Below are positions 1,851-36,228 of a stretch of 39,835 nt of DNA, one piece after another. The stretch covers positions 3,040,776-3,080,610 of the forward strand of contig NC_057756.1 in NCBI RefSeq assembly GCF_004010195.1. The letters are read 5' to 3'. The notes under the pieces are model-generated. The model did not search any database. It was not told the origin of the DNA and worked only from the letters and a program-made list of their open reading frames with translations. A program made the position numbers and the translations under genes. Position 1 is the stretch's first letter. Every line of letters begins with the position of its first letter. This DNA is from Chiloscyllium plagiosum (lineage: Eukaryota).

Positions 1851-2016
1851 TTGTTGATAACAGTTTTCTTCTTGCATGCATGGTTATTCTTCCCTCTTTG
1901 ACGTTCAGTATTCATTTGAATTTCAGAGCTGGTACAAAAAATTGAAGGAAGAAAAGTGGTAATCCTACTTGTCTTTGGTTCTATTATCAATTTCTTTTTC
2001 ATTCGTTTCTCAACAG

Positions 2017-2043
2017 AACTTCAAGATCTTCTGCAAAAGACCA
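2017..2043 (+). CDS. 27-nt phase-1 microexon, (E)LQDLLQKT
   Basis: tttctttttcattcgtttctcaacag|AACTTCAAGATCTTCTGCAAAAGACCA|gtaagt; strong polypyrimidine tract and consensus donor. Confidence 0.75.
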
Positions 2044-3276
2044 GTAAGTGTTTGTATTCATTCTTTTAAAATGGTAACATCTAAAGTACCTGGCAACGTT
2101 GGTGGAGACAAATGGTGGGATTTCATATTGCATGTCTAATATGTACATGAGAAACATTGTTTGATATGATCTTAGTTTACATAAGCGATGCCAGTCAACG
2201 TTACACTATGGCAAACCTATGAGTATCAGAAAAAAAAACATTCCTCGAATCGTGTATTCTTCCAAAATTGCAGATCAAATCACTTGAATACTTTAAAGTT
2301 CCAGGACTATTCTGAAGTACCTTGTAGGCGTTGGCAACTTTTAAAAGTTACCCAGTTTTGATCAGGTATTAATAGACAGTGGATATTGGTAAATTAATAC
2401 GTATGAAAATACTGCTTATGTTTGAATTGCACACCTGATGTTTTCAGAATACAAGAAGTGAGGAAACTCCCATTGACATAATCAGAAATATTAAAGAACC
2501 AGGCTAGATTCAGAAAAAAAAACTTGGTTATTTGTATTGTCGAGTTTACCTTTGTATGGAGCTTCTTACATTCACGTGACAAATGAACAATGAGAACAAA
2601 GTGAAATAATTTAATCTCGTACAATTGTAACGATTCATCGTTACACATCTCCTGTATATTTTTTGTACTGTAACAATGAGCTCAAGGAGTCAACTACATA
2701 TACAAAATGAATTCAAAAGAATAACGAACAAGATGAGATGAATCTGTGAGATTAGACGAGTGAAATTGAAACAATTTAGCAGTTACGTTCCAAAAACGTA
2801 ATGGCACATGCTACACAGGGTTTGGTCGTCAAGGTAATTGCTTTTTAGGCATCGTAGGGAACATAGACTTCATTATCATCAGATCTGGATATTAACATTG
2901 CAAATGCTTAATGTAAGCAAAGAAAAAGAGAATGTGAATGAAAGAGCATACCATCGTTAACAGCTGCAAATACTTCAGTCAGTTTGGAAATGAAGGGAAA
3001 AGCTTTGACATTGCCTCTGTCGCAAAGTTTGTCAACCATCGTACTGAAAAATCCACTTTGATTACTTTGGCAGCCAGCCGAGGATTGGAAGCAAGGAAAT
3101 ATATGTTTGAAGTATATGCACATTATTTAAACCTGCCTTGTTTCCTTCAGTTATACTTCGTCTGTCAAAGCAAAAGTAGTTATGTACAGTCTCAGCAAAA
3201 AACATTCAATTTATTTGTTCTCAAAGGAAACATTACAGCTATGGACTGTTTCGCCAGTACCAAACGTCGCTATAAT

Positions 3277-3332
3277 CTTTCTTCTCCTTCGTCTTCTTCT
3301 TCTCGTCCTCCTCCTCCTCCTCCTCCACCTCT
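3277..3332. repeat. (TCT/CCT)n trinucleotide microsatellite
   Basis: cttcttcttctcgtcctcctcctcctcctcctccacct; explains the poly-S/poly-P stretch in ORF 2938..3441. Confidence 0.9.
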
Positions 3333-3410
3333 TCAATATTGTTACCAGAAAAAAAAAGTTGAGCTGCATTTCCTGTCACTGATACATTGCACGCTGTGCT
3401 CATTCCACAG

Positions 3411-3437
3411 TGAAGACATTGTTCGAGAAAGAGACTG
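3411..3437 (+). CDS. 27-nt phase-1 microexon, (M)KTLFEKET
   Basis: gctgtgctcattccacag|TGAAGACATTGTTCGAGAAAGAGACTG|gtaagt; phase 0 begins with a stop, phase 1 is open. Confidence 0.75.
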
Positions 3438-4859
3438 GTAAGTGCCGCTGTATCTGAGGATTCAGAGTGTTTGTCAAGATAAATGTCAAATCATTGTCAA
3501 ATGTTTTCATCTGCAACTGTAAGTCGCGTATTTAAACTGTTTTTGCAAAATATTTCTCCTACAAATTTGGAGCAATTGGGTCATCTGAAATATCAAACCA
3601 TTGATAGTCATTTATTGCTTAACACTCTGCACGCGTGATGTACATATTTTATAATTACAGAGGACAGTATTGCCTTCACCATAATTCTTTCTAAATTTAC
3701 CAACTCCAATAGCACTTCAAAGCAGTTAACTATGACTTGCTTCCGACAAATGTTTAAATGGTTTAGAATTTGCAGTTTGTACCTTAACAGGAGGTTAAAC
3801 CAAAACCATCCTTGCCAGTTCTGAATTCTGATGTATATGAACAGGTCAGTCTGTTCAAGGGTTGTGTGACCTGATAAGCAAACGAGTTTCAAATGAAAGA
3901 CAGAAATTATTATATCCTTTTTTGGCAAACAATGTTATTTAAGACTATACATTTCAAGCCATTACATATTTTTGTGTGAATCAGCGCATTCAAATTCACA
4001 AAAAATATTTCACTCTCATGAGAGACGATAGCACTTTTGCGACTTATATAAAGACAAGTGAACCTACTCAGGGTTTCTACATCTTTTTTCAAATCTCACA
4101 AACAACTAAATCCTGAAACACAGTATGCAGCAAGTTATGAACAAAATGTTAACAAGATCAGAACAACATTAATCAATAAAAAAAATAATCCAGCTATGCT
4201 TTAACAAATGCATTTTTGAGCTAGATTCACTTAAAGGACAGAGAAAAAAGAAACCGTGAAAGACTAAGTAAACGTAAAGCAAATCCTTTTGCTTCCACAT
4301 TAAGGAAATATCATTCATGTCGAATTATTCCACAGGTAGCAGTTATGATTTCCTAGTAATATTTCCGAAGGTGTTGATCATCGTCATCCTTGCAGTTCAT
4401 TGAAGAAAATACCTGAAATCGTTACTTAGTTTTATATTCTCTGAGCTTTTATCCATTGCTAATTGGAGTTTCGGACGAATGATTTCAATTCTTCCTGCAG
4501 TTACATCAACAGTTAAACAAATTCGTTATGGACAGCACAGTCCAAACGCAGTTCAATCTCGGAACACTACCTGTCACACTGACTGGCTCTTCCATCAGTT
4601 TCCAGTCATCATTCAGCTGTTGTGATCTATGAGAAAATAATGCATTCTTTCCGCAACAAATTCCCATGAACTACCCCTTCTCGTAGCTCACTTCTACTTT
4701 CTCCCAAACGTAAGTCTCTCCTCCATAACAAAGATTATGTGGAAAGTATAAATTCAAAGTAAAACTGCAGGTAACCTCTAAGCCTGTTGACAACAATAAA
4801 GTGATTTGGCAGTGCCAGTGTGCACTAGGGTGGACAAAGTAAAGTAGTACAACAGCACT

Positions 4860-5795
4860 TTATAGTCCCACAGGATTATTTGAAAGTATGAACTTTCGAG
4901 GCTCTGGGATAACCAGCAACTAAATGTGGTGGAGCAGAGTTTGATTTCAAAATTAGTATCCATGGGGATGGCATCAACCATGATCTTGGATTCATATCAT
5001 TCGACAGGTAATGCCACTGAACTGTACATACTCTTACAAACACCCAAATAAACACACTTTACGACATGCTCACACAGTCACACGACTCTCCCTCATGTAC
5101 AAGCTCTCTCTATCATATGCACGAACATGAAGCCCCGCACTCACGTCCACGCACGCGCCCTCCCACTCACAGGCTTATATTATATCACACACACACGTAC
5201 TTGACCAAGCTTACTTTCACACATACACGCATTCTTTTGCATTCACTCACACCTACAGACATGCAAACATATGCACGCACAATGTGTCTATCCCATGTAG
5301 TGCTCCTCTCCTGCAAGTACACACATATAAGTTTATAGGGTGAATTTGTATTTGCAGAATTACATTTTATTTTGCTCAAAACTGCATAAGTCCATGTAAG
5401 ATTCTATATGTCCCACTTTAGAAATAGAAACAGTTTAACTCAACATTGGGACACAGACAAACGTTAACTTCATATCTTTAATAAATTGTCTGAGCTGAGT
5501 TGGCACCTATTGTAAGAAAAGCTGAATCTATCTTGAGAATGTAACAAAAGGAATTCTGAGGTTGACATAATGAAGAACAGAAACGAGTTTATGCTATTCT
5601 AAAAGATTAAAGACAAATCTAAATTTGCTTAATATCCCATCACAGGTCCTTGACACTTTTACCTTTTAGCGATAAATTCTCTGTCTCGTGGTCCTGTTCC
5701 ACAACCATCTGATGAAGAGGCAGCGCTTCGAAAGCTAGAGCTTCCAAATAAACCTGTTGGACTATAACTTTGTGTTGAGTGATTTTTTAAACTCA
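4860..5795 (+). mobile_element. Penelope-like element 3' portion (end of GIY-YIG ORF, CA-rich tract, terminal repeat with hammerhead motif)
   Basis: Decayed ORF end resembling EQRLIAKFGTHEDGLNRDLGF near 4931-5010, a CA-rich tract, and the terminus CTGATGAAGAGGCAGCGCTTCGAAAGCTAG...AATAAACCTGTTGGACTATAAC; related to 33241-35030. Confidence 0.75.
5706..5740 (+). ncRNA. Minimal type-I hammerhead ribozyme motif (stem I degenerate)
   Basis: CAT-CTGATGA-A-GAGGC(AGC)GCTTC-GAAA-GCTA-GAG: CUGANGA and GAAA core, 5-bp stem II, palindromic AGCT at stem III. Confidence 0.6.
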
Positions 5796-7739
5796 TGAAT
5801 AAAGAATATGCTACATTTTTTTCTCATTTTAACACAAGCTGTTAGTCACAATTCAGAAGTCATATTTAGCGCACAGTTTCTTGTTGGCTGTGCCAAACCG
5901 AAATTACTTAAAGCAACAATGATTCTGAAAATGATTTAAAACAACACTTCCTGATTAGAACACGTGTTTTAGAACACAACTCGCATGTGTTTCTTTGAAT
6001 TGTAGTACATTGCATCTTGAAATAGGTATTGCAAACAGCGATATCACCAGTGAAATATTCACCTGCAGATGTATCGAAACACATGACCACTTAAGAAATT
6101 TCAGATATTTTTCCGTCGTGTATACTTGAACATGGAGATAAGAGATTAATTCTAGTAATTACAATTGCAATCTAATGATCTGGGCAGTCATTGAAATGAT
6201 TGCTTTATTTATCAAAGCAAACACTGAACGTCTTCTCCTTACTGAACGTAGTACAAATGCATATTTGTAGATGAACGGAATATGGTAGGCATTAGATCTT
6301 TCCTGGAAGTAGGTTCTACCGGAAACTTCAAATAATTTGTGAAAATTAGAATACAATAAAATTGACCAAAGTAATCAAGTACTTCATGGTGTTTCAATAA
6401 GCTTCAATTTTTGCAACAAGCATGCTGCAAGTCAGAGCACTGTTAAGTTCCGAATGGAACAGTTTTATAACGAGCAGGATGTTGTTAAAATAATACATCA
6501 AGACAGCAGGGAATATTTTGAAAATAAGACACAAAATTGAAAAATATTTTTATGATGAGGACGCTGAGATCGAGTTCGACTGACATTTGAGCAAGAATCT
6601 TTCTTCAGAAACTGTTTTTCCATATAACTGAGTGTTTTAAAATACTTTTGATATAGTAGGACCAGCTTTGTGAGTAATTTTAATGCAGACAACATAGAAG
6701 ATAGAACGCCATTCGGGTTATCATATCTATTACGACCATGATGCAATTCAAAACTTGATGTACTTCCTCATTATCCACAAATTAAGCAATGGTCTTTCAT
6801 CTGCAAACGTTCTGTGCAAACCACCTAATTCATTCATATATTGCAAAACAATAGAGGTTTCAACCTTAAATCGTGGTAACCTTAAACAGAATACCACCGG
6901 TGGTACAAATCCAGTCACTATCTCAAATCTGACAGATTTATGTCAATTAACATGAAGCAATTTTGAATCCAATTTGTCAAATTATCGTGGAAATACCGTG
7001 ACATCAGCTACTGGAACAGCTTATCATAATGATCCTTATCAATCATTCTTGAAAGTTCCATGTGGACAACATTCACTGTTCTACCCTCGTGAAATATTTT
7101 TAGCATTTCCTGGAGAAATGCAAGCAAGTTGTGAAACAGGGCACACCCACTAAAAGCTAGGGGGACTGTTCACGTTAATTCTATTCTTTTGCAAATGCAA
7201 GTACATACTGCCCTTAAGAAACTCCTTCAAACGTTTGGGGCTGTTACTAATGCAAGACTGAGTGCATTATGTTTTTTTTTAATTTTATTTATGCTGATCT
7301 TTGCAAGGAAAGTGACAGCATTAACAATTTCGTCGGATTCTGAATAAGCCTGCACTTAAACAGGATACAAGCAACCCATCATGCGTCAGAAATCTTCCCA
7401 CTTACTTCCCTCTGTGTAATGGAATAGATCCTATCAGGCCTGATGATTTTTCCACCTTAATATGTTTCAAGACTGCGAAAATCACCTTGTCAATTGATGT
7501 GCCTTAGAATATGAGCATGCACTATCTTAATCCTAACATCACCCTTGACCTTCTCCTTCACAAGTTCTGATGCAAAGTATTCCTTAAGGACCTTGCACAC
7601 TTCACTTGACGAATGAGCAACGATTCTGAAGTTTGTGATTTCAAATTTACCGTTTGTACTTTCACCTGGTGTGTGTTCTGGACAGTGTTGTCGAGAAAAG
7701 GATCGATGGGGTTCAGATACATAATTCCTTGAAAGTGGA

Positions 7740-8500
7740 TCTGCAGCATGATGGGGAGAGAAGAAGGTCTTTGGCACTTTTACCCTCATTAATCAGTGCA
7801 ACGACTGTACGTGTTGGAATGTCATATTCTGGCTGAAAAGCTGTGAGTGAATCCAATCTTGGAATATTACATTCAATCCCGGTCTCCCGGCTGTACAAAA
7901 GTTATTCAGAAAAGATATACTAGTGTTGAGCTGCATTGAAAATTCCATCCCCACCCTTTCTTTTTCTGCATTTCCCTTTCGACCCACTGCCAGTTCTGAA
8001 AAAGGGTTCCAGCTGAAATATAAACTTCTCTATCTCCTGATACTGACTTGCTTACTCGGTTCTTCAATCTATATGGAGCGGCTGTTGAAGCTCAGTCTAT
8101 TTTCAATCGAGATTCGAAGACTAAGGTCACCTTTAAAGGGTATATACTTAAGAGAAGCATGGATGGCATCATTAACTGAGGTTTTCCTCCTCCAGGATAG
8201 TGGAGTCCAAAGCTTTAGGGCACAGCTTTAAGGTGAAATGGGAAAGATTTAAAAAGGCATGTAAGGGTAACTTTCTCACGCAAAGAGTGGTGCAGTTAAG
8301 GAATGAACTGCCCGAGTAACTGGTGTAGACCAGTACAAGAACAACATTGTAAAGGTGTCTGGTCGGGTACACGGTAAAAAAGAGGTTAGAGGAATATGGC
8401 CAAATTCCGCCAAATGCATCTCGGTTAACTTCGGAAATGTCGTCAGCATGCACGAGTTGGAGTGAAGGTTCTTTTATTCGTGCATTAGAACTCTACGAAA
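7740..8500 (+). mobile_element. Decayed CR1-type LINE 3' end, interrupted at about 7945-8065 by a Penelope-type terminal fragment
   Basis: CR1-like gggcacagctttaaggtgaaatgggaaagatttaaaaagg...ggtaactttctcacgcaaagagtggtg and 3' UTR; homologous by eye to the reverse complement of 20985-21300. Confidence 0.7.
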
Positions 8501-9094
8501 CAATGACTGCATGATGTGTATCATTCCGCTTCAGATATACGCTTCTTCCAAACAAGGAAGGATGTGATTAATCCTGGTCATCAGATAAAACACGGCCATC
8601 TTTGATCAAGCTTATATGAAGTATTAAATGTGTATATTCGTTGTAATTGTATTTTGCAGTCCCATTTATGAATGCTACATTCTTAATAAGTAGATTCAAA
8701 ACGGATGTCGTGAATACTTCATGTCTACTTTTTAATGCAGTCCTTGACATTGCACAAAAGTGTTCAATTAAAATCAGTTATATAGGATGAAGGTCGCAAA
8801 TAGTGCTATTCCAGCGCTGTGTTCTGGTCCCTTACAAATATCACATTAGTCGTCAAACTGATCTTAATGGTCAGAACAATTCTAATGTATGTCGGCCTAG
8901 AATGTGACTTCTATGGAATAAAATGCTCAGCTATTTGTATTTCGTCACATGACGAATTAACTTCTCACTACAGAACGAAACTTACTGAGCTTACAATTGA
9001 TATGTTAACACTTCAGTTGACAAACCATCATGTGCTGCTGTGACACAAGTGTGCGCCATAATATTGAGTTTGTTTAAAAGTTTAAAGAAAGGCA

Positions 9095-9277
9095 CTAGGT
9101 GAATTGGCCAAGCCAAATCGCCCATAGTGATAAGGGATGTGCAGGTTAGGTGCATTAGTCATGGGAAATGGAAGGTAATAGTGTTGGGGAACGTCTGTAA
9201 GTGTGATACTCTTCAGAGGATCAGTGTGGACCTTTTAGGTCATATGGTCTAATTCCACACCATAAGGATTTTATGAT
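9095..9277 (+). mobile_element. HE1-like SINE 3' half, decayed
   Basis: aggtgaattggccaagccaaatcgcccatagtg...tcagtgtggacctttt...attccacacc matches the 3' half of the 38886 SINE. Confidence 0.75.
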
Positions 9278-10353
9278 GCTGGAATTCATTAATTAATCTA
9301 TAATTTTAAAATAATCATTCAATAGTTATCTGTATTTACACGGAATATCTTAAATAGTACCATGAAGTGAAGTGAAGTGAATAGTCCTATCTTCAAATTA
9401 TTGATAAATTATTACGCACAATTAGAAGCATAGAACAAACATCATATCTAAAGTTAAATCATCTCCGTTTGATTTCATAACTGTTAAAATTATTTGAATC
9501 AATTGCAATCATGTTTGATATTGCCGTATTTGGAATAATATTTCCATCTAAACTGTAGTTATTGATGTGAGGAACGTTAGTTTACACAAAACAAATCATT
9601 CATTCGACACAAGTCGACAGCCGTGTTCCTCAGAATAGAAGTTCATATGTCTGTGATAGATGGGAATTTTGAATTGCTTGAAAGATTGCATAGCTTCTGT
9701 ACTCCATCAAACCACGAAGAATTCCATCCTTTTGGTTTTGCTTTTACTGAGGGAATTGTTGTTTTCTTTTTGGAAATTTGGGAGCTCTGAACTTTCACAG
9801 TTCCTTCGAGACGACTCGAATGCAATAAGGATTACACATTTGAGTCAGCATGTCTGTGGAGTACGACAACTGGTGATCTTCTTTTTCATATAATGTTAAG
9901 AAAGTTTTGGAAGTCTGAAACGGACTTCTCTGATCAAGGCTTTGATTGATTTGAAGTCATGGTAAATATGCTGAAATTGTTTTGATCTCGAAAAAAAATT
10001 GAAAAGTACTGAGTTCGATCACAGAAATACATTAATATCAATTATACGTTTTAGAATATTTTGACAATCATTTTAATTATGATATAAACTTTTACAATTT
10101 TAAATGTGCATTTAGGTGTCATCATTGGAGTCACGTAATAGGGCTCCAAAAGCCTGCATGGACCTTTGTTTCCCTAATTCACATTTCACATTTTCAATTT
10201 ATCTTGGTCCCCTCACGTCTTCTGTGAATTATCAGTCTTCAATTAGTCCTTAATTTCAGCAAATCCGCATTGTGAATCATGCTTTATTAAAGCAAATCAT
10301 TTTTTGCAATTATTGCAAATCACAGCCAACAACACTAAGACTTCCGCCAACCG

Positions 10354-10378
10354 CCCCCTCCCCCCCCCCCCCCCCCCC
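10354..10378. repeat. Poly-C tract (poly-G on minus strand)
   Basis: ccccct followed by a run of 19 C (10360-10378) in AT-rich surroundings. Confidence 0.9.
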
Positions 10379-11997
10379 ACCTCCGCAAGCTTTCCATTGT
10401 CGAATACTTTGTCCATGAAACTTTTCGTTTGCGATTAAAGCATGGCACCAAATCGATTGAAGACAACTACAGTCAGTTATAATTCATTTCTCATCACCCA
10501 AAAATAGGTTTCCGCAATATTAAGCATTAGGCTTATAACATTGCAACAAAACTGCCTTTTTTTGTTGTTTACTACTTTAACTTTAAATAACAGACGAATT
10601 ATAGCATTTGGTACCAGAGTGACCTCTGCAATATATGAGGTAGATGCGAAAAAGTTCTCACAATGAACTGAAATGTTATGCCAGACTAGACGAGTGTGCA
10701 GACGCGATCTTTTCCTGCAAATCTGGATTCTGAACAGTTGTTATTTTATTCTTAAATACTGCATTTTTTGCAATTAATGGAATATGAACACCTTATATAA
10801 ATGAGCATATAGTTTCTGGTGGAACACATGTTCTACTAAGTGACTGAATTAAGAAAATATTGACATGGGTCATTTTTTTTTGTTCGGGCGAAGAGCAGTT
10901 TTTCACAAGTAGTTTCAAAGAACAAAATAACTCTTCTTGAGCAGAGAGACGTTGACAGACTTATGAATAGGGTCGTGCGTAATGCAGAGTAATTACCAAT
11001 GTGAGCACAATTCCAACAATGGCTGAGCATATCGAGAAGTAAATCCTTCTCAAACGTTCGCCTGAGGCGTAGTGCTCATTTGGTTCACCCACAAATCCAA
11101 ATCTCTCTTTCCCTCTCTCTCTCTCTCGCTCTCTGATGAAGGAGCAGCCATATGCTGTGGTAAGAGTATGGTGATTATATCTTTTATATGAACATTAAAA
11201 AACAAAGAGGAAAAAGCATTTCTGAGGAGTTGAAAGAGTGGTATGGAACATGAAAATACGACAATTGCACAGAGCAGGTCGAAATTGACTCGACTGAGGA
11301 CTACCTCATGTTCTATGTTGTGCACGATTAAAAATAACCTTAAAGTTATTTATTAGTGTTCTTCAAGGTGCTGTCAGGTAGGTCTCACACATCTCGAACT
11401 ATTAATCTTGGCCATTGCACAATGAGACAAGCAGCTTAATAGGAGATTCGATGGCAATAGTCACTAGCATTATTCACCTCTCCACAGGTGATAGGAACAT
11501 AATGATGTTATGATTGGATAAATGTTTCTCAATTAATTTTATTCTAAGTGAGCATACGTAGTGATTCACAGCGACAAAAGAAACAATAATCACTCTTTAC
11601 ACAAGACTCAGTATTATCTATTAAGCAATTTTATAAAAGTAACATAAGCGAAATTAATGCATTCTCCCTTTTGAAAAAAAGAGAAAAATCTATTGTCTTC
11701 TGTAATGGAAACAAAAGGATTTGTGGAAACGCGGAAGAGAATTTTTATTTTTGATAATGTTTTTGAATAGTCTGTGAGCATTTAATTGCAGATGGTTCTC
11801 CTCCAGAGAAATATTTCTTTTTGCACACTACATTATTGACTCATAAAATTCTCACCTAATCTAAGTGAGGTGTTGTGTGGCAATTGGATTTGAATACTTT
11901 TGATTTTTAGCAAATTATATGTCCTAAAGGAATGTTTTTACTTTCCAGTTATCCCTTCCGTATATATTACGCTGATTAGCTTGATTTTCGGTTTCAG

Positions 11998-12024
11998 AGT
12001 TACGGAAATTGCACATGGCAAAGG
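11998..12024 (+). CDS. 27-nt phase-1 microexon, (E)LRKLHMAK
   Basis: cttgattttcggtttcag|AGTTACGGAAATTGCACATGGCAAAGG|gtgaga. Confidence 0.75.
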
Positions 12025-13369
12025 GTGAGAAAAAATAATATTATGGGACGTGACTTTCAATTGAAATAATTCTGAATTTTTTTTATAGTTAGTAATATTT
12101 CTTTTCTTTGCTGGAATTTGTAAGAGTCGTATATATTTAAACCTGTGTGCCAGTTTAGAGACTTTGAGCTCTTCTGAGCCAGAAATGCCATTTCAAACGA
12201 CATATAATTACAGCTTTTCCATGATGGGGAGGTAAGGGTTTCATTACTGTTTTCAATCAGTCGCTGACACCCCACCCCAATAATAACTAAAACCAAAATC
12301 CACAAGGAAATTAATCTCGTTATATAGTCTGTAAATTGAGTGTAAAAAGTGTTTTCATCTGAATGTAAGCAACTTGTAGAATTTAAATAAAGTTATTCCC
12401 TCAGAATCACTTTAAAATCAACAAGTAAAATTTGATTAATTTAAGTTTGCAAGTGAACAAATTAACCAAATTATTAACAAACAGAATAAATTCATTCTAA
12501 CTACTAAATATTCTTAAATAGGATGAGATTTTGTTAGTATGCCATTTCAATAAATACAAGTTCCAATTGTATAAAAACAAATAGGATTAATCTCTCGAAA
12601 TTACAGCCAGGTCACATGTTTTCCAGATTTTTTGTGCCTTTACCATCGTTTCTTTTGGCAGAAATGCCTTCTGCACTGAATCGTCTGTCAGGATCATTAA
12701 CGTTTCTTGCCAACGGCGCCACTTGTATTTGAACGGTGCTTTTATTCTAAGACTTAGAGGCTCTTACAGATGGCAGCTAGCTTTGAGGCGTGAAGTTAAT
12801 TGCTCATTTCTTTCCATACTCTTGATTACGTATATGATCCAAAATAGCTTTGTTTATATGTTGTCACAATCATGAGGTTTAAAAATTAGTATTATTTTGG
12901 TATCTTAACACGTGTATCATACTGTTTGGATAATTGGCTTTAAAAAAAACTGCTCTATTGTTTTAAAAAAAACCAAGCTGTTTGGCCTGAGAACTGTCAG
13001 GCCTTTCAGTCTAAATGTTTCAATTCGTGTGCTCTCAGCATTCATGCCCCTGCTGTTCCCATGCATCCATTTGAAGTTTGTAACATAGACAAAGGACATG
13101 ATCGTTCAAATAGACTGCACAATGCTTTTTCCGCTAGCATTTAATATACACCAAATTCTAACTTCCTCCTTACCAGTCCACAGTTATTCTACACTACTTC
13201 AAACTGTCTCCCCATTAAGAAAAAAATGAATTATTGTTACTAAAAGGTGATTCTTTTCTTATAAAGAAACTTAATCATATCCACTGCACATTAATTTTGA
13301 GTGATATTTTAGACTAATTCCATTGACATGCAACTTTGAAAACTAATGTTCTTCCCGAACGTAAATATT

Positions 13370-16350: not shown

Positions 16351-16419
16351 GTGAACGAGCGAAAGTGTTTCAAGTAATAAACTGTCTTCCTGGAACAGTA
16401 TTTTTTTTTTCTGTCATGA

Positions 16420-20948: not shown

Positions 20949-20984
20949 GTCAGTACGCATTTCTTAACATCAAACTCTGTCTGA

Positions 20985-24942: not shown

Positions 24943-25349
24943 CTAGTCGCTATAGAAATGTGCTACCCCCTTAGTCTTTCACGGCATTGTCCTCAGGATT
25001 TGCGACGAGAGAACTTTCGTTTTTATTCTTGAAGTAGCATGATAAGTTCTGTCCATATTATCTTTTCAGGCAGCAATTCCAATGCTCTTAAGAACTTGAA
25101 AATGCGAATGGCTCATCAGTTCATTCCAGCTGGCGCATCATGCCGACTCAATCGTCAATTAATGAGCTCTTCAATGAAAAAAACACTTCCCTTACTTCAT
25201 ACTTTTCCAAATTCATCATTTTTTGTAGAATCGTATTTCTGCTAAACTTCATCTGTTCCAGCATAAAATTCTCAGCCATTTTAAGAATTTTCCCCAATGA
25301 TCTGTGTTATGATTCTGTCGATGTCAACAACATAGTCTAACAAGAGAGT
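24943..25349 (-). pseudogene. Disabled exon encoding a possible CARD/death-fold domain
   Basis: Acceptor ttgcag, donor TAG|gtaagt, ATG at 25279 in good Kozak context (aaaATGG). Reads MAENFMLEQMKFSRNTILQKMMNLEKYEVREVFFSLKSSLIDD*VGMMRQLE*TDEPFA/FKFLRALELLPEKIIWTELIMLLQE*, with stops and a frameshift. The fold assignment is by pattern only. Confidence 0.35.
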
Positions 25350-26809
25350 CTGCAATTGAGTGTTAATAAGTACTCCCAATAAAACAAAATGTTTTGGCTA
25401 ACTAATTATTTAAGTGCATTGCAAATAATATTTCTTCGCAAATATTTACTATTTCGGCAAGAAAGTATACATTCTTGTTATAAATAATATCTCTCGTAAA
25501 TAAGCAATTAAAATAAACGTAATTTAAAAAATAAAATGTTTAATAATAGAGAAAATCTGTCAACATCTGTGATAAAAGGGAAAGAATTGAAATTTCGAGT
25601 CGATAATGACACTCCATCTGGATATTTTTTGCTGTTTGATTAGAATTTTAGAATGCTCATTATTTTCTCTTAAGTAAGTGCAAACTAACTTCGTTTGTTT
25701 ACGTTCAATCAGAAATTAACATGGGTTGCATCATTCACAGGAGATGAAACATCGTCAGACGGTGAGACTGATAAAAGTGTAAGGAATACATATACTGAGG
25801 GATAACATAGGTTATCTGCGCATTATTATTCGGAAATTTAGGATCGTGTAGGCCATGAGAATGCAACCACATCTCGTTTTTCCAGGAAAATCATGCTTGA
25901 TATCAACACAGCGTATCAGCAATGGCAGAACAATGAGCAATATCGAAACGAAGTTACGTAGTAATAGGTCCTTGGTGAGAGAGGTTTTCTATCACTACTG
26001 CCTCGCATGCTTGTATATTATGACGATTTAATCAAGGTTTGATCGCAAATCTGTTTCATAGCTGCAAATGGCCGTTCATGTTGATAATTTGCAAAGTGTC
26101 AGAAAAAAAACATTTAAAATTTTCCACAATTCTCTTCACTACGTTGCATCAAAATTTCCCATTGTTGCACTTGAATAAATAATGCAAAATTCTGTACATC
26201 TATGTGTTACCATAATTAGTCTACAAGTACTGACTGCATTCTCTGAATTATTAATAAAGGAAAAGCAAAAATCAATACTTTTATTTATTAAATTAGTTGA
26301 GCGGTTATCAGAAACGGTAGAAGTTGCTATCAATTTCAAAACCCACAGTAGTTATTCTCCATAACGGATAACATTATATTTTCCGAGTCAGAACCCAATA
26401 TCTGAGGTATTTTGAAAAAGGGTTTCCATTTAGCTCATCAACAACAATGGAATTCTGTCAAAGTCAAACAATACACTGACTTACAATTGCATTGCAGCAA
26501 CTGAATTCTCAAAAGAAACGGGCACTCCTACCATTATAGATGAATGTGCAGCAATTTGGCCTAAGGTATTCAAGACATAATTTCAAAATTGGCGATCGCT
26601 TATAAATGAAACTTGAAGGATAGATGTTGGTTTGTATATTGAGAATATTAATTTACATTGAGACACGCATGCTACTGGCTTGGAACAACACGACATTCCA
26701 CAAAATATAGAGAAAGAATCATCTTGAAAAGCGCAGTAGCTACGGCTGAAACTATTCACCAAAGAGTCATAGAATTGTAAAGCAAGGAAACAGATCTTTC
26801 GGTCGATCT

Positions 26810-27200
26810 CGCCCACGCTGTACAGATGTCCAAAACGAATTTAGTGCAATTTGCCAGAACTTGGTCCATGTCCTTCTAAGCCCTTCCGATTCATATAATC
26901 ATGCAGCTGGTCGTTAAAAGTTGTAATTGTACTAGTCTCGAACACTTCCTCTGGCAACTCATTCCATACACGCACCACTGTTTGCGAGATAAGTTGCCCC
27001 TGAGGTCCCTTTTAAATATTTTCCATCTCACATTGAAACTATGTTCTCCAGTATTCGACTGCCCCTCCCCGGCCAAAAACCTTGTTTCTTTGCCCTATCC
27101 ATACCCGTCGTGATTTTATAAACATCTATAAGTTCACCCCTCAGCCTCTGACGCTCCAGAAAAAAAAATCCCAGTTCATTCAGCCTCTTCCTGTCGCTCC
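26810..27200 (-). mobile_element. CR1-type LINE 3' fragment
   Basis: GQSNTGEHSFNVRWKIFKRDLRGN; homologous to 21000-21400. Confidence 0.85.
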
Positions 27201-27853
27201 ACCACTGGAATGTTGATCAAAGATAAAGCTCTTCACCTGTTTTTTACTACTATAAATGGATGCGTGTTCAAACAACATCAAAACCACTTGCACTACATGA
27301 ACTAGAAATTGTCATTTATGTAGCTATTTGTAAAGTATCCATGCCTTGCATGCTGTGCCATGATTTATTGGCGCTAGTCTAGTTCCCACATGGCCACTAT
27401 GAGTTAAGTTCCTCTCAAGTTAATTTTTGTTTCTAGCAGATGAAAATTATCTCAATTTCTGATTATCATATCGGCAGTATTAGCATGGGCATTCCCGCGA
27501 TATTAGTGATTCTATTTCATACAATTTGCTCGATGCTATGGTCAGACACTGAACAGCGATAAAAAAAAGTGCGAATTTCGTTCATTTGGGCTTTAGTTTT
27601 CAACCACGAAAGTTTTTTCTAACCAAAAACATCAAGACAATTTTGCGACTCAAATGACTGACAATGTTGTAGGCATTTCCAACGTTTTATGCCTGAATTA
27701 TAGTGTTTAAAAGTGCTGAACCTTTACATCACTTCATCTTTGAACACAATAAATCGCCTCTAACCTGCATGGGGTACTCAGTAGGTTTCAGCAACGCTGG
27801 GTTTAACTAAAAGGCCAGTTCTGAGATTGGCTCTTTCCTTTTTTCCATTTTAG

Positions 27854-27889
27854 AAAATCAGAGGCTGAAAACAACAGTGGCAGAATTAG
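27854..27889 (+). CDS. 36-nt phase-1 exon, (Q/E)NQRLKTTVAEL
   Basis: ctctttccttttttccattttag|AAAATCAGAGGCTGAAAACAACAGTGGCAGAATTAG|gtgggt; very strong acceptor, heptad-like peptide. Confidence 0.75.
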
Positions 27890-28059
27890 GTGGGTGATAT
27901 GTTAAGAATATGTATTTTTTCAAAGTAACCAAGAATTATGGTGAATATTAAAAAATAAAATTTATTATGCTCGTTAAATGATCATTTTTTGAAATTATCT
28001 CAAAAGGATTGCAGCAAGTCATTAATAAAATGCTTTAATTACACTAAAGTGTTTCTTAC

Positions 28060-28071
28060 CTCCGTTGTTTT
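28060..28071 (-). other. Candidate 12-nt antisense microexon
   Basis: Minus strand: ttgactttgc(t)nacctctttccag|AAAACAACGGAG|gtaaga; branch-like TTGAC, strong tract and donor; lies upstream of the 25349 exon on the same strand. Confidence 0.35.
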
Positions 28072-28483
28072 CTGGAAAGAGGTAAAAAAAAGCAAAGTCA
28101 ATCTGAACTTCCCACGAAATAAATCAGGATTCATTCGTGACGACAAAAACGTGGAATGTACATGAATCAGCTAGCAATATTAGAGGGGGAAATCAATAAA
28201 GACAGGGTGCATGTAAAGCAAAGATTGAAAAATTATGAAAGTAAAATGAATAGGCAGAGGGCTGAAACGAATTTTACAGCATAATTTGCATGTTTCCAAA
28301 TATTATAAGATTGATTTATTGATTTACTTTATGCTTCCATGTCCATTTCACTCATCCAAACATCTTATTAGAGTACGAAGATGTAAATATTCAGCATGAA
28401 TGTTTCTAACGTGGATAAATATTTTACCGTGAATTTAAGCTAGCAGATACCATTAGCAAACAAACAAAAACAAAATGATGGAA

Positions 28484-28640
28484 CAAATTACTGCAGATTC
28501 TGGAATCTCTAATGAAAACTCCAAATGTTGGAGATCACAACGGCTGTTACGAAGAGTGATCTAGACTCGGACCAATAGCTTGCTTTCTCCACGGATGCTG
28601 TCTAACCCGCTATACCCTCCAGCGTTTGGTGTTTTCAAAA
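28484..28640. mobile_element. Short Penelope-derived element with inverted ends
   Basis: ctgcagattctggaatc..caaatgttggagatcacaacgg and ggatgctgtctaacccgctataccctccagcgtttgg are partly reverse-complementary and resemble 39752-39835. Confidence 0.5.
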
Positions 28641-28804
28641 ATCAAAGAACCTCTTCCAGACTTCGAAAGCTCGATTGCAAATTTGTGGATACTTATTACT
28701 TCTCCAGATTCTTCCACCAGCATTAAGAATTTGCTCAATATTAAGTACAGCAAACTGGCTCATTATTGTCATCATTTCAATGAGACCAGATCCTATCATT
28801 TCTT

Positions 28805-29030
28805 AAATGATGTGGAGGTGCCAGTGTTGGATTGCGGTGAACATGGTCAGAAGACACATGACAATAGGTTATCTATGAACAAGTTTATTTGAATCACTAG
28901 CTTTCTGAGTACTGCTGCTACATCAGGTGATGTCTAGTGAATTCACCTAACGAAGGATTAGCGTTACGAAACCTTGTAATTGCAAATAAAGTTATTGGAC
29001 TATAACCTGGCATCGTATGACTTTTGACCT
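28805..29030. mobile_element. Palindromic (hairpin) element made of two opposed Penelope termini
   Basis: 28845-28930 is approximately the reverse complement of 28943-29029, and both arms resemble 5706-5790. Confidence 0.75.
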
Positions 29031-29211
29031 TATCATTTTATAAAAACCGAGCAGACTTAGGCCATGCTGCCTGCTGCATACTCATTGGGCAGTATCCTCA
29101 GGAGAGAAAGCATTATTGTAAAATGTCATTATATTGATTAAAAAGATGTGTGGATGTTTGCATTGTCATTAATTTCCAATGTCGTCAAACAGTGGTTCAC
29201 TTTTCATTTAA

Positions 29212-29620
29212 CTGAGTCTTAGAGATGAACAACACAGTAACAACCCCTTCTGCCTAACTCGCCCATACCGACCAGACATCCCAAATAATTCTAATAGCAT
29301 TGGGAAGCATCTGGCGCATATCCCTCCAAATGCTTCCCATTCATATACCCATCAATGTGCCGTTAAAATGTCGGAATTATGACAGCGTTCATCACTTCTC
29401 TTCAGGCAATTCATTGCATACATGCAACATCATGCACATGAAAATGTATCCCCTCAGATCCCATTTAAAATCTTTTAACTCTCACCTTAAATCTACTATC
29501 TCTACTTTTTTTGGAAAACCCAAACCTGAGGAACATATCTTGACTTTTCAACCATTCATTGCCCCTCATGGTTTTGTAAATCTCTACAATGTCATCCCTC
29601 AGCCTCTGATGCTTCAGGCA
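29212..29620 (-). mobile_element. Decayed CR1-type LINE 3' fragment
   Basis: LKHQRLRDDIVEIYKTMRG..SRFKVRVKRF plus CR1-like 3' UTR. Confidence 0.8.
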
Positions 29621-29948
29621 AAACTGCTGAAGACAAAAATAAATTACAGACGCTGGCATCCGAGTCAGCCTCTCCCTACAACTAAAATCCTCCAAATCCA
29701 GAAATGCCTGTGTAAACAACGCGTGCATCATTTGAAGTTTATAAACATATTCCTGCTTAAAGTGAGATGAGAATTGAAAGCAATAGTACAAAAGGACGCA
29801 TAACTAATGTTGAAAATTAGAATTAAATAGTTGCATTATAGTAAAGGCAATCCTGGATTAGTCAAATTGGACTCGGATCTATAATTTGTTATTTTAAGAT
29901 TCTCAATGCTTCATTTCCAAAGTACATTTCTTGTCTCGCAATAAACAG

Positions 29949-29984
29949 ACATCAGATTAAATTGTTCTCTGATCTCCGCATTTG
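29949..29984 (+). CDS. Candidate 36-nt phase-1 exon, (D)IRLNCSLISAF
   Basis: catttcttgtctcgcaataaacag|ACATC...GCATTTG|gtaagg; open in phase 1, acceptor only moderate. Confidence 0.45.
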
Positions 29985-30512
29985 GTAAGGTACCAAAAAC
30001 GTCATGAAGATTAGAAATCAAGTTTAATATTTGTTTGTTAAAAATCGGAACCATTATTATTGATGATGCGATTGGCGCTTTAATTTCTTTGCCCTGCTTG
30101 CCTTTGTCAAGATTGTTCGCTCTCGTTAAACTCATTTAAATGTCAAACATTAGCGTCTGAATATGCATTATTGAACGTAAAATAATCCTTGAGCTCTGAC
30201 ACTCCCGAAACAAGCAAAAGAAACAACCAGAAAAAGTGATTTATGCCAAAGATAGGCATCCCATTCAGATAAAAACTACGCTATTTTCTGCTGATTTAAT
30301 AAATGGGAAAATGTCCTTTCTGTTCAGGGAATAGTTAGGCCATGTGATCTGTCATATTGAATGTTGATACAATTACCATATATATGCAATTGCGTGTGCT
30401 GCTGGTTAGAACATTTTTTCATTGATTTTTGTTGTATCAAAGAAGATTAGTGTGAATAAAATGTATACGGTAAAAATCTCTGGCCTCAAATTTTACATCA
30501 TGTCTATTTCAG

Positions 30513-30539
30513 AATGGAAGTTGGAACACAGTTCAAGAC
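30513..30539 (+). CDS. 27-nt phase-1 microexon, (E)WKLEHSSR
   Basis: catcatgtctatttcag|AATGGAAGTTGGAACACAGTTCAAGAC|gtaagt; the EWK start recalls the EWKKALFKP segment before B30.2 in human BTN3A1. Confidence 0.75.
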
Positions 30540-30757
30540 GTAAGTTGCAAATTAGCTAGTGACTTTTTTTTTACTGAATATTGACACGCCAATGATTAGC
30601 TGATATGTTAATCAATCATTTCTGCAAAGAAAAATATGAAAGGATTGGGCTTTCAACATACCCCAGCAGGGTATATAACAGAATACAATTATTAACAGTA
30701 AATATAAAGTAAAATCAGATGATAGAATAGTTGTAATGCTTTAACAATTCGAATGAA

Positions 30758-30877
30758 ACTGGTCAAGGGTTTAAACTGTGTTATTACTGCCAAATAGATT
30801 ATTTTTCATATATTTACTTGACGTTCAATAAAAGAAAAAAAATACATCAAAATGCATTTCTTCTCCATTTAAATCCT
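30758..30877 (+). repeat. Left arm of ~120-bp inverted repeat
   Basis: Reverse complement of 32013-32130, about 10 differences by manual alignment. Confidence 0.92.
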
Positions 30878-31189
30878 TATGTACTTTTTGCAAGTCTGAG
30901 CGAGGTAAACAAAACACTCGAATGTGAACCATACGTGTCTTACACAAATAAGAATATATGATCGAACAACAGGTACATTGTGTCAACAATGTGTGGTTTT
31001 TCTTCCCCTTGTCTCTGGTCACTAGTTTTAATTCAATAAATATTCATGCACAGCACAGCCAATAAAATAGAATATTGTAAGTGAACCGACAACAGGCTGT
31101 GCTTACACAGCAATCCGCGATTTGCTCCCAAACCTCACAAATGGCAAAGCTTTCTTTGCTGGAAATATTGGATTGTTTAAATCTACTTT

Positions 31190-31480
31190 CATGTCGAAAC
31201 TATGGACTTGAGCTTCCCAGAAATTAAATGACTTGAAACATGGGGAGTACCACCACATGCAATTTACCCTCCAAACCACCCTCCACCCTAACTTGGAAAT
31301 ATAACACCGTTCCTTCACATCCGTTGGGTCAAAGTACTGGAATTCACTCCCTGCTGCCATTTTGGGTCAACACACAAAAGCTGTACTGCATCAATTCATG
31401 AAGGCAACTCACCACCACATTCTCAAGGGAAAATGGGGAAGAGTTGTCAATGCTGGTCACTACATTATGGAACCTACACC
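31190..31480 (+). mobile_element. CR1/L2-group LINE 3' end fragment
   Basis: caccacatgcaatttaccctcc...cgttccttcacatccgttgggtcaaagtactggaattcactccc...aaggcaactcaccaccacattctcaaggg. Confidence 0.75.
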
Positions 31481-32012
31481 CAGCAATGTCTAACGTACAG
31501 AAATCAATAAATAAAAATGATAAGCTTATAGAATTTATTCAGCATGCACGGGTTAGAACAAAATGTACCATACAGAATGTTGTGAAAGAATCTCTAGATT
31601 CTTTGCAGCAATATTAATTTCGGTAGATTCAAGCCAATATTTAATTAATTGCAAACTGCTTCTGCTTGCTTTTCTTACTTGATATTGAATGCCTTCAGTC
31701 TAGGTTGATGCATAATGGCCAAAACAAAATATTATGGAAGAGTTTGCGTTTCAGTCATTTAGTTAAATGCGGATAATTCACGGTAACCTTCCTGTAAAAT
31801 TCTGTTTACAATCTTGTAGAAATACATGCCTGCAACGATGAATTTTATGGATTGCACAACTGGAGTCCGTCATACTTCAATCGCTTGCCAATGAAGCAAC
31901 TGTGAAATAATATAATTGCATTCAACGTAGTCTTGCAAATTGTGAATGTGAGGTTGATGGAATATAATCAGCCATTACAAGGAAATTTTGGGAAATATAT
32001 ATAGTGACCAGG

Positions 32013-32130
32013 AGGACTTAAATGGAGAAGAAATGCATTTTGACATATTTTTTCTTTTATTGAACGTCAAGTAAATACATGAAAATTAATCTATTTGGCA
32101 GTAATAACCCAGTTTAAACGATTGACCAGT
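32013..32130 (-). repeat. Right arm of ~120-bp inverted repeat
   Basis: Reverse complement of 30758-30877. Confidence 0.92.
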
Positions 32131-32953
32131 ATAGGATTTAGAACAATTGCTTCTCATAACATTTGATGTTCTTGAATGCCTATATCGTGATTTCATTAGT
32201 CTCTTAAATAATTTTTAAAATACATAATGTACTTACAGATGCCTGCATGTGTCTACTTCTCTAACAATACTGTGAGGCACTCAACAAAAGACCTTTGCCT
32301 TTTAATAAGTTTATAAAATCAATGAAAGATGTGGAAAAATCCAGGAAATACATTCTAACAATTTAGATAATAATATGTAATGCATAAGACACTTCAAGGT
32401 CACGTTCCAGCAAATCAGCACACTTTGCCGATCAGTTGGTATAATTGTACTGACCAAAGGTCATAAGAATCTGAGATGATCAACAAACCTATGGTAAACA
32501 TAGAAGTAGAATATTATTCACATGGTACTTGGCAGATGGCATGAAGATGGTTTTAATTGATAAGGGCCAAAGAAACAGTAAAATATATGATCTATTGAGG
32601 ATTGCGAATGAATGTATCATTAATTCTGTCCTCACCAGAAGCTTAACTAATGATTTTAACTGCAAAATTAATTTAAAAAGCTCGCTGTTATTGCTCGATA
32701 TTTGGATGATAATGTTACATTTTCCTTTCTCAGCTATCAAGTTTCTTGAAAAATCTTATCAAAATTTCGTTCCACAATTGCTAATGTTCATTGACGCATT
32801 ATTGAAACAACACATTATATCAGTATATTGTGATATGCGAATAGGTGTTCCATGATGCAGCTGTGATGACTTGATTATAGCTTGTTTCGTGTCATTTTTA
32901 CAGCTGTTCAGGTTAACGGAAATTAAATGTGCTACATACTTAATTACCTTCAG

Positions 32954-32980
32954 GTGGGGATTTTCGGAATATAATACCAG
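32954..32980 (+). CDS. 27-nt phase-1 microexon, (R/G)GDFRNIIP
   Basis: acttaattaccttcag|GTGGGGATTTTCGGAATATAATACCAG|gtaaga; phase 0 contains TAA, phase 1 is open. Confidence 0.7.
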
Positions 32981-33240
32981 GTAAGACGTGAAATGTTGAG
33001 GTTATTAAAAAGTGAATCGATTTGTAAAAATACAGACGTGGAATGTCACAACAGTAGTGCACGGACGAAGAGCAAAATATGTAACTTTAATATCAATGAC
33101 AAAACAAAAAAAAGTTAGCTGAGTCACCGTTAATTTACTTGATAATATTATCTAAGGTTACAAAAGATTATTCTAAAAATATTTTTACTTGAAGATTTCA
33201 TTTTTTAAGGGATGTAAACTAAACACAAGCATGATTTAGA

Positions 33241-34114
33241 GATGCCAGCTTTGGACTGGGGTGTACAAAGTTAAAAAATCACACAACACCAGAGTATGGT
33301 TCAAAAGTTTTAATTGGAAGCAGTAGCTTTCTGAGCGCTACTCCTTCGTCAGGTGGTTCTGGAGAACACAATTGTAAGACACAACATTTATAGTAAAAGT
33401 TTACAGTGTGGTGTAACTGAAATTATACATTAAAAATACATTTTTTTTTGTTACGTCTCTCATCTGTTAGAATGACTATGTTAGTTTCATTTCTGTCATA
33501 TGTCAATTCAAAATATTTCTGGGAAATGTTACATTCTCAGGTTAACTTTAACAACTGGTGTCAGCCCAGATAATGTGTTGAATGTGTTCGCCCCCTGTGC
33601 TGTTGTCCGTGCCATAATGTTTAGACTGATTCTAATCTAAAAAAAAGATTTAACAGTGTTACGTGGAGTCATGCAGTTTTTGAGTAAAGTACAATGTAAC
33701 TCTGCAAGGAGAAATGTGTATGCGTGCGCACGTGCATGTGTCTATCTGGGTTAGGAGTGGTGAGTGTCTGTGAGAGAAAGTGTATGTGTGTGTCTGAATG
33801 AGTGTAAAGGAGTCTAAGACTGTGACAGGCTGCATGTGGGTGTGTGCCTGTAGGAGTTTGTGTGTGTGTCTGGGATGGTGGGTTGTGAGTGCCTATGAGA
33901 GAGAGTGTATATGGGTGTGTGCGAATCTGTGAGAGGGTACTTGTGTGAGTGGGAATTTGTGTGACTGCACTAGTCCGTGTGAGTGTCAGTGTGTGCATCT
34001 GTGCATAGGAGTGACTGTGTGTTAGTGTATGTGCGTGTCTTTGTGTGTGTGTTGTGCAATGGTGGTCACTTGTAATGTGACATGAACCCGAGGTCCCATT
34101 GAGGCGCTCCCTCG
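33241..34114 (-). mobile_element. Penelope-like element 3' portion (left arm of inverted pair)
   Basis: Reverse complement reads ..cctcaatgggacctcgggttcatgtcacattac, CA-rich tract, then CACCTGACGAAGGAGTAGCGCTCAGAAAGCTA and the terminal repeat. Confidence 0.8.
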
Positions 34115-35030
34115 AGTTCAGTACTAAGAGGGGTGGTCTCAATGGGGACCTTGGGCTCATGTCACACTACAGATGACCACCATTACACTATGCACACACA
34201 GAGACATTTCTACACACACACACGCTCTCTCTCCAACACACACACTCACATTCACACTCACACAGGCACTCCTGTACACAGACATTGGCACACACTCCTA
34301 CAAGCACACACACTCCCAAATTCACACATGCAACCTTTCACAGATTTATACCTGTTTACACACACACATATATACATTCTCTCACAGACCTTCACAACCC
34401 CCCTTCCCAAACACACACTCACTCTTACAGACACACACACACACACTTACACATGTACCCTCTCACAGTCTCAGACCACTTTACTATCACACATACACTC
34501 TCACGGACTCTCACAACACCCCCACCCCACACACGCACACAAACACACACACAAACTCATATACACACACACATTTGTACTTGCAGAGGTACATTGTACG
34601 TTGCCCAAAAACTGCATGAATCCATGTTAGACTCGTTAACACATTATTTTAAGATTAGAATCAGTCTAAACATTATGGTGCAAACAACAGCACACGGGAG
34701 TGAACACCTTCAACACATCATATTGACTGACACCACATGTTACAGTTAACCTGAGAATGTAACTTTTAAAAGAAAGCTGTTGTGATTTACAGATGAAAGA
34801 AGTGAAACTAACATGGTTATCTAAAAAATGGGAGACTTAATAAACAATCAAGCTATTTTTCAATGTATAATTTCAATTACAGTACACTGTAAACTTTTGC
34901 TATTAATGCTGTGTCTTACAAATGAGTACTCCAGAGCCACCTTATGAAGTAGCAGCACTCCGAAGTATCGGGCTACCAGTTGAACCAGCTGGAATACAAC
35001 CTGGTATTTTGTGATTTTTAACTTTAAACA
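34115..35030 (+). mobile_element. Penelope-like element 3' portion (right arm of inverted pair)
   Basis: gagttcagtac..gtctcaatggggaccttgggctcatgtcacactacag, CA-rich tract, ...acaacctggtattttgtgatttttaacttt. Confidence 0.8.
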
Positions 35031-36201
35031 CAGGCAAGAAGAGATGGGAAACAAATTGATCAGTTAACCTTTTAACTGACTGTTGCAAGATGTTGTCGAT
35101 GCTGTCCTCCTTTGCCATTTTATTTCTGCAAACCGATAATTGCCAATTGAATTATTTTAAATTGAAGCCTATATGGTACACTGAATGTTTTGCTATTAAG
35201 TAAACAACATGAAAGAGATGTTGCTATTAATTGACACTTTAATTTATGAAAACCTGAATGGTGAAAAATCAATAGAGTGATAAGGAAACCCATATTGTAT
35301 AGTTAGACACAAGTACCAATTAAAGTTTCACCGATATAAGAAAAACATGCGTAGCTAAATGGAAAATCAAATGGGGTACAGCAGTGGACATCAAACAAGT
35401 GGAATGACTGACGACATGAAGAGACGGAAAAGGATCAGTAAAGAAAACAAATCAGATCAACCAAGAATTATAGACAAAATGATCATCGAATGGAAAAGAA
35501 TAAGTGAATAAACTATTGAAGTGAATGAAGGTCAGATCATGTGAGCATTTCAGGCCAATATTTCAAAAGTCATTTTGAAAAGAAACAAGATTTCTATAAA
35601 CCATATGGAAAAAGTAACCATCTTTGATTAACGATTAAGCTGATGTGTCGAAGGCCACTTAGAATGTAAATCTATTTTATGCAACAAATATTTTCCTGAC
35701 AAACAGTAAAAACGGCTTCTTTCCTATCACTCTGCGTGGTTGAAAATCATCTCCAGAACTTCAACACAAAATTAAAAAAGGAAAACGCACTTTTTTCTTC
35801 AGTATTCAAGTTCTCAGCTACGTCAACACTGTTGTTCATCAGTTGTTGCAACCAGGCCTATTTGAAGCATATAAGAAAATGGTTTGTGACCTATAACAAG
35901 CGAGACATGAACAACATTTATGAAACGTTTCAAGCTGTTTCTGATAATATCAATGTGTGAACATGAAAAAAAAAACTCAGGTCAAACAAAGCATAGGCTT
36001 CAGCTGCCTGAACACGGAAATATGGGTTGTTCATAAATGCTGTTAAGATCTGAAAATTGCAAAACCAAGTGTAGATAGTTGTGCACAATTTCACAATACT
36101 TTGCACAAGCTGATGTATGAATTTACTGTCAAGTTACAAGTGACCATTTGAGTGTAATTCTAACACAGCTTAAGGAGTTTGTTGTTTGCCAATTTGCTTA
36201 G

Positions 36202-36228
36202 ATGCTGATCAAATTTATCAAGAGGAAG
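36202..36228 (+). CDS. 27-nt phase-1 microexon, (D)ADQIYQEE
   Basis: ttgttgtttgccaatttgcttag|ATGCTGATCAAATTTATCAAGAGGAAG|gtaagc. Confidence 0.7.

Follow-up and report, generated by a model that had tools for sequence, protein, structure and literature searches.

Introduction

Chicken BG genes have signal, IgV and transmembrane exons and 27-38 repeats, without a B30.2 domain (PMC5938342); numerous symmetric exons of 21 nt, each beginning with a split codon, encode their coiled coil, which is produced with alternative tail lengths. BTN/BTNL proteins carry IgV, IgC and transmembrane parts and a juxtamembrane coiled coil of few heptads that is followed by B30.2 (PMC7348870), and class IV TRIM proteins also place a coiled coil in front of B30.2 (PMC3137616). 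Here we describe a window of 39,835 nt from the bamboo shark Chiloscyllium plagiosum (contig NC_057756.1, hereafter C47, positions 3,040,776-3,080,610; the window is this whole stretch, and offsets in kb are given in its coordinates), in which a preliminary description had picked out nine hidden microexons and assigned them to the cytoplasmic tail of a butyrophilin- or BG-like receptor. We found that these nine units, spread over 34 kb, belong to a much longer chain of well over 100 segments on one strand, extending over more than 2 Mb. The units are probably true exons coding for the central part of a very long coiled-coil rod, for which splicing to a distant B30.2 exon is predicted and which is possibly secreted, and they likely represent an undescribed gene family of cartilaginous fishes rather than the tail of a butyrophilin receptor.

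Comparing the locus with the described systems, we found that many symmetric 21-nt coiled-coil exons, as in BG, occur in the blocks flanking the window, while the window itself has 27/36-nt units. The locus departs from BG in that no IgV or transmembrane exon was found in the DNA searched, and in having more than 100 21-nt units, further units of 27/36 nt, cysteines in the core of the rod, a span of megabases and a B30.2 where the chain ends. That B30.2 belongs to a different clade from the B30.2 of BTN/BTNL and of TRIM proteins, and no RING or B-box exon was found in the region searched. Predicted salmonid proteins of 1.3-2.3 thousand amino acids, e.g. XP_021469485.1, have the same design of signal peptide, long rod, terminal PRY-SPRY and many isoforms; unlike the shark clade, their B30.2 groups with TRIM/BTN and the rod motifs are absent, and the design is likely convergent. 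These salmonid models (P0181-P0187) are unstudied and come in dozens of isoforms. Collagen-type exons of 27, 36 and 54 nt are glycine-periodic; the shark units are not, and collagen was rejected on this ground. In the literature outside subscription journals and supplements we found no paper on a chondrichthyan family of coiled coil plus B30.2. Single elements of the design are known from BG, BTN and TRIM; their combination, the megabase scale and the B30.2 clade were not found in the literature searched.

A same-strand chain of probable microexons

Exploring 800 kb on each side of the window, and further DNA by samples, we found that plus-strand 21-nt units run from -742 kb to -280 kb (first 21-nt block), 27/36-nt units from about -257 kb to +259 kb (central block, with the whole window, 1..39835, inside it) and 21-nt units again from +298 kb to +758 kb (second 21-nt block), and that 27/36-nt units resume from +761 kb and continue to 9 kb or less from a B30.2 exon. 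The chain begins at -742 kb or further upstream, and its block order is 21-nt, 27/36-nt, 21-nt, 27/36-nt, B30.2. One uniform rule applied over 1.64 Mb predicted 176 exons on the plus strand and 22 on the minus strand; those on the plus strand amount to at least 4,533 coding nt and are distributed as 70, 45, 52 and 8 over the successive blocks, with one more upstream. Four exon patterns searched in the 3.56-Gb genome gave 4, 6, 4 and 5 hits, all on the plus strand of C47, and the five hits of the 36-nt pattern comprised three in the central block, one in the block before B30.2 and one upstream of another plus-strand B30.2. The units of the preliminary description are present as described; the scale had been underestimated about 60-fold.

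The bias of these units in length, strand and phase was examined in the window and in the blocks around it. The pair YAG-N27-GTRAG occurs nine times on the plus strand of the window (six of these being units of the preliminary description) and once on the minus strand, while the other 91 length/strand classes have a mean of 1.95 pairs (Poisson p 2e-4, 0.009 after 46 lengths); none of 300 dinucleotide shuffles reached nine pairs (mean 1.21, maximum 5). The count of 27-nt pairs on both strands and in shuffled sequence, proposed earlier as a null, thus gave a clear plus-strand excess. In the central 565-kb block, a splice model trained on the 21-nt units of the same locus returned, at a score of at least 14, 26 plus-strand versus 0 minus-strand units of 27 nt and 16 versus 1 of 36 nt. 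Phase 1 is open in 24/26 and 15/16 of these strong units (39/42 together), the other two frames in 14 and 12 of 26 and in 3 and 6 of 16, against a background openness of 0.64 (27 nt) and 0.55 (36 nt); the model takes in a few exon bases, which accounts partly for the closure of the other frames and not for the openness of phase 1. For 21-nt units the counts over 1.64 Mb were 99 plus versus 6 minus at a score of at least 16, with the model trained on these very units, and 151 versus 82 in a model-free count. These data support the proposal of hidden symmetric phase-1 microexons.

Several further features lie along the chain. A paralogous pair of 27+36-nt exons is found 1.04 Mb apart, at C47:2,237,173-2,237,699 (L198:6398-6924; -803 kb) and at L050:9226-9543 (+239 kb). 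The 36-nt unit at -803 kb is 85% identical over 52 nt to its paralogue at +239 kb; the identity is confined to the exon and its splice sites, with introns that fail to align, a pattern that purifying selection would produce. The pair at -803 kb points to a further (third) unit upstream of -800 kb. Within the first 21-nt block, from about -445 kb to -310 kb (L066-L079), exons recur with alignable introns, which marks a recent segmental duplication. At the switch from 21-nt to 27/36-nt units, a 72-nt phase-1 candidate exon with two cysteines lies at -279,678 (L023:322-393) and could be a hinge. Assembly gaps of 1.7-3.8 kb stand at both unit boundaries (+288,214 to +289,877; about -775 kb and -764 kb). 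Possible leader exons are two exon-like segments, L146:5302-5475 and L056:3639-3790, which have strong donors and a short run of hydrophobic residues; the first heptad exon in the respective 21-nt block follows 2.6 and 4.8 kb later. The ATG in the first of these segments is out of the phase-1 frame. Around the two block starts, 81 low-repeat open reading frames (ORFs) were scanned against Pfam, and none held a domain above the cut-off.

The terminal B30.2 exon and its relatives

A search of the flanks for a downstream PRY-SPRY, as had been suggested, recovered a B30.2 exon at C47:4,577,499 (SPRY match at C47:4,577,660), about +1,537 kb and thus 1.54 Mb downstream. It starts in phase 1, reaches a stop after 172 further codons with its frame intact and is preceded by 27-, 36- and 21-nt units. 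Its nearest solved sequences are TRIM58, TRIM21, pyrin and BTN3A1, at about 27-37% identity. In a midpoint-rooted B30.2 tree of 42 rows, which included part of the fetched proteins, it falls in a 14-row clade (support 100/100; branch 0.92) made up of five genome copies and chondrichthyan proteins that have a coiled coil only; outside this clade stand 12 RING-TRIM, 11 Ig-bearing, 4 other genome and 1 salmonid B30.2.

The nearest proteins, retrieved with B30.2 queries, were modelled automatically in chimaera, catshark, skate, electric ray and basking shark. They include Callorhinchus milii XP_042192744.1 (1697 aa; stand-in name 'nuclear-pore anchor-like') and proteins predicted as coiled coil plus B30.2 from Scyliorhinus canicula (XP_038671249.1, 945 aa, and XP_038672306.1), Leucoraja erinacea (XP_055510696.1) and Narcine bancroftii (XP_069775384.1). 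In the relatives scanned SPRY was the sole Pfam domain. Two rod motifs, selected once the data were known, were counted 12 and 9 times in the 3,102 residues taken from seven relatives, 1 and 0 times in 31,328 residues of RING-TRIMs and not at all (0 and 0) in 9,779 residues of Ig-BTNs. An L-x-x-C start was found in 25/176 of the predicted exons. Isoform models of the relatives, of a kind generally built on RNA reads, differ by internal blocks of 9 residues (in three species) and of 6 and 7 residues. A signal-peptide-like start is present in 2/7 relatives and an internal transmembrane helix in none of the seven. The N-terminus of the chimaera protein had no tblastn match in the region, and a search of the ESM Atlas with its rod gave low scores only (0.78, 0.76). 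These chondrichthyan models resemble the locus in the B30.2 clade, in having SPRY only, in the shared rod motifs and in the 9-residue isoform differences; the locus is longer (the 4,533 nt above being a minimum) and has large 21-nt blocks. We consider it likely that the units of the window are real exons of the rod of this family. A B30.2 of the clade stands at the end of the C47 chain, and splicing of the window exons through to this exon at 4.58 Mb is plausible, with a chance that we put slightly below even.

Architecture of the predicted rod

The coiled-coil product that had been proposed is supported by the spacing of hydrophobic residues in the predicted exons. They occupy positions 2 and 5 in 21-nt exons, position 4 in 27-nt exons (58% of 31) and positions 2, 5, 9 and 12 in 36-nt exons (62, 88, 81 and 62% of 16), and a cysteine is found at position 5 in 29/99 of the 21-nt units. 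Given that 156 of the 176 predicted exons end in G and 3 in T, almost any skip avoids a stop at the junction. One 21-nt exon would make one heptad, and 36+27 nt would make three, so that the rod may have grown by exon duplication with frame and register unbroken. Judged by residue count, 9 or 12 residues taken singly would shift the heptad register, and 9+12 = 21 would keep it. For the 9-residue cassettes that had been thought freely skippable, the reading frame is indeed kept and isoform models of the relatives do differ by nine residues, but skipping would shift the heptad register.

Individual units of the window

All nine AG..GT units are present at the positions first reported, with AG before and GT after each. 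Their lengths of 27, 27, 27, 54, 36, 36, 27, 27 and 27 nt add up to 288 nt. GTRAG donors follow all six units of 27 nt, and joining the nine in phase 1 gives a frame that is free of stops and yields the peptide read before. All are on the plus strand. Splice scores reach 14 or more in five of the nine, which we regard as firm: the 27-nt phase-1 microexons at 2017..2043 (LQDLLQKT, score 16.2), 3411..3437 (KTLFEKET, 14.9), 11998..12024 (LRKLHMAK, 18.5) and 32954..32980 (GDFRNIIP, 17.7; its splice sites are firm and its peptide is linker-like), and the 36-nt phase-1 microexon at 27854..27889 (NQRLKTTVAEL, 15.8). The LLQKT of the first is also present in the rod of S. canicula XP_038671249.1, and the unit at 3411..3437 resembles a 27-nt unit of the chain at -27,069. 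Probable phase-1 candidates are the 36-nt unit at 29949..29984 (10.6) and the 27-nt units at 30513..30539 (10.0) and 36202..36228 (10.9), and the weakest is the 54-nt phase-1 candidate at 20895..20948 (7.5). The preliminary description had allowed that its choice by eye might include spurious exons and miss others: the nine are all there, the 54-nt unit is weak, and one plus-strand 27-nt phase-1 candidate had been missed, at 13220..13246 (KNELLLLK, GTGATT donor, score 12.3), 1.2 kb past the 11998 unit.

DNA contigs cover 30/30 bins both in window positions 20500-36500 and in the region of the B30.2 exon, and the sequence is therefore real. Mapping of one contig set and of parts (2% and 6%) of two single-cell runs to the same two regions placed reads on repeats only and gave no splice joints, a result that speaks neither for nor against splicing. 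For window positions 20800-30600 no RNA data set was listed. The introns contain LINE-like reverse-transcriptase fragments at window positions 19875-20303, 21278-21820, 38450-38857 and 39462-39821 (-) and a CA-rich simple-repeat tract at 33669-34749; the long ORFs of the window we take to be LINE reverse-transcriptase fragments and simple repeats.

Alternative gene structures

A number of observations weigh against the reading of the window as the middle of a rod spliced to the distant B30.2 exon. Splicing in this species, the start exon and the link to that B30.2 are what we infer from the sequence. Four of the nine units in the window fall short of the score at which the minus-strand control is cleared, and the model-free excess over 1.64 Mb is small for 27 nt (100 versus 90) and 36 nt (95 versus 73). 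One of the 175 predicted junctions gives a stop. The 0.7 Mb from +840 kb to B30.2 was covered by samples, and no 27/36-nt unit was found in 3/7 samples of one set and in one sample of another within it. The boundary gaps could conceal a diverged B30.2 exon. At neither block start was an ATG-led signal exon found, and 5/7 relatives are without a signal-peptide-like start; these models may be cut short, or the proteins may be cytosolic. No orthologue carrying the window peptides was retrieved by searches that used B30.2 queries, the window exons being too short as queries. Compared exon by exon, 49 central peptides scored alike against rods of the family and coiled coils of TRIM (mean z 0.46 versus 0.47); this score does not separate family from TRIM, and the case for membership is therefore built on the motifs, on the pattern that links the blocks and on where the B30.2 lies.

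The alternative that survives best keeps the family and the rod and makes the window's unit (about C47 2.30-3.30 Mb) a tandem gene of its own, about 1 Mb long, with a diverged B30.2 hidden in a gap or headless like chicken BG tails. The order of the blocks recurs unit by unit, each 21-nt block is preceded by 40-60 kb poor in microexons and by hydrophobic exon-like segments ending in phase 1, N gaps stand at both unit boundaries and the paralogous 27+36 pair marks the end of two units. C47 also holds two further B30.2 exons of this clade, at 0.995 Mb (plus strand, L182) and 1.297 Mb (minus strand, L183), the former being 98% identical to a bamboo-shark protein; two more lie on contig C37, at 22.23 and 20.72 Mb (L184, L185), where a TRIM/BTN cluster is located. 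Against a tandem gene, tblastn found no B30.2 between -800 kb and +840 kb (1.64 Mb), no paralogous terminal exon was seen after either unit, and unplaced contigs yielded no extra close copy among the 150/258 candidates scored. The DNA depth of the known B30.2 exon is 15.5 versus 15.3 in the flanking intron, without excess, and collapsed near-identical copies are therefore unlikely. Aligned to each other, the two candidate leader exons score 50, below the shuffle maximum of 63. A separate tandem gene is on balance unlikely, though it deserves serious weight. We give similarly low weight to a larger structure, one transcription unit of at least 2.3 Mb with well over 200 microexons, in which repeated units of leader, 21-nt block and 27/36-nt block would share a single B30.2 and secreted, cysteine-linked rods of several thousand residues would have their length set by exon choice. 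Such a locus may be likened to protocadherin, with a variable stalk and a constant head; if true, few vertebrate genes would match it in number of exons, and cartilaginous fishes would have in it a new B30.2 system of the secreted kind.

That the units form a decaying or silent duplicated array, a pseudogene no longer translated, is very improbable. No start exon and no B30.2 of its own were identified for it, and the peptides at 29949, 30513 and 32954 stray from the coiled-coil pattern, but phase 1 is open in nearly all strong central units, conservation between paralogues is confined to exons while introns no longer align, and the B30.2 frame is intact.

The original proposal was the cytoplasmic tail of a butyrophilin- or BG-like membrane receptor, which would have its IgV (and IgC) and transmembrane exons farther upstream, and the chain does share the 21-nt exons with split first codon of BG and the terminal B30.2 of BTN (PMC5938342). 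However, tblastn with shark BTN IgV and IgC matched nothing in 1.99 Mb, a stretch that takes in the 138 kb preceding the first 21-nt unit (gaps and DNA more than 880 kb upstream lie outside this search), so that the expected upstream IgV/IgC exons did not appear; a BTN B30.2 query used as a positive control recovered the terminal exon in the same search. Genome-wide, none of 38 BTN-type IgV and 37 IgC matches was on C47 (0/38 and 0/37), most being on C37, and a V-set family search with 150/1,319 candidates scored placed one on C47, at 10.2 Mb. A fish TRIM N-terminus (RING/B-box) had no tblastn match in the 1.99 Mb, nor was one present in the relatives scanned. A regex scan of 640 kb for Ig, RING, SPRY and transmembrane motifs gave nothing credible, and the only candidates for a transmembrane exon seen before the heptads of each block are short hydrophobic ones. 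With its B30.2 outside the BTN/TRIM group and relatives devoid of Ig domains and internal transmembrane helices, the assignment to BTN/B7 receptors is not supported, and we consider it very improbable. Finally, chance AG..GT pairs chosen by eye, of which the window holds about two of the form YAG-N-GTRAG per length and strand and to which the low-scoring 54-nt unit might belong, are refuted for the set as a whole by the bias in length, strand and phase, and are the least credible explanation of all.

Discussion

We favor the reading of the window as the middle of a long rod of a chondrichthyan coiled-coil plus B30.2 protein. Duplication of exons would lengthen the rod in steps of 7 or 9+12 residues. 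The rod would oligomerise, with its frequent core cysteines able to cross-link chains, and would hold several B30.2 heads together at a distance, giving a ligand- or pattern-binding protein that works by avidity. Skipping a single 27- or 36-nt exon would keep the frame, change the length of the rod and insert a break of register. The product, more than 1,500 residues long, may be a rod-shaped oligomer whose chains are possibly joined by disulfides; whether it would be secreted we judge evenly balanced. By analogy with the B30.2 family, one may guess at a role in innate recognition or a structural role in mucus or fluid.

The cluster is of megabase scale and invisible to ORF-based annotation, and databases label parts of it as TRIM or 'nuclear-pore anchor-like' fragments. 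As a natural experiment, it lends itself to testing how a coiled coil grows when exons are duplicated (7, 9+12 residues) and to testing the recognition of 21-36-nt exons over introns many kilobases long. B30.2 domains are the ligand-binding heads of TRIMs, pyrin and butyrophilins; a separate clade of them, carried by rods of giant size that are possibly secreted, would add an unrecognised branch to the oldest lineage of jawed vertebrates and would bear on the assembly of TRIM, BTN and BG tails by exon shuffling.

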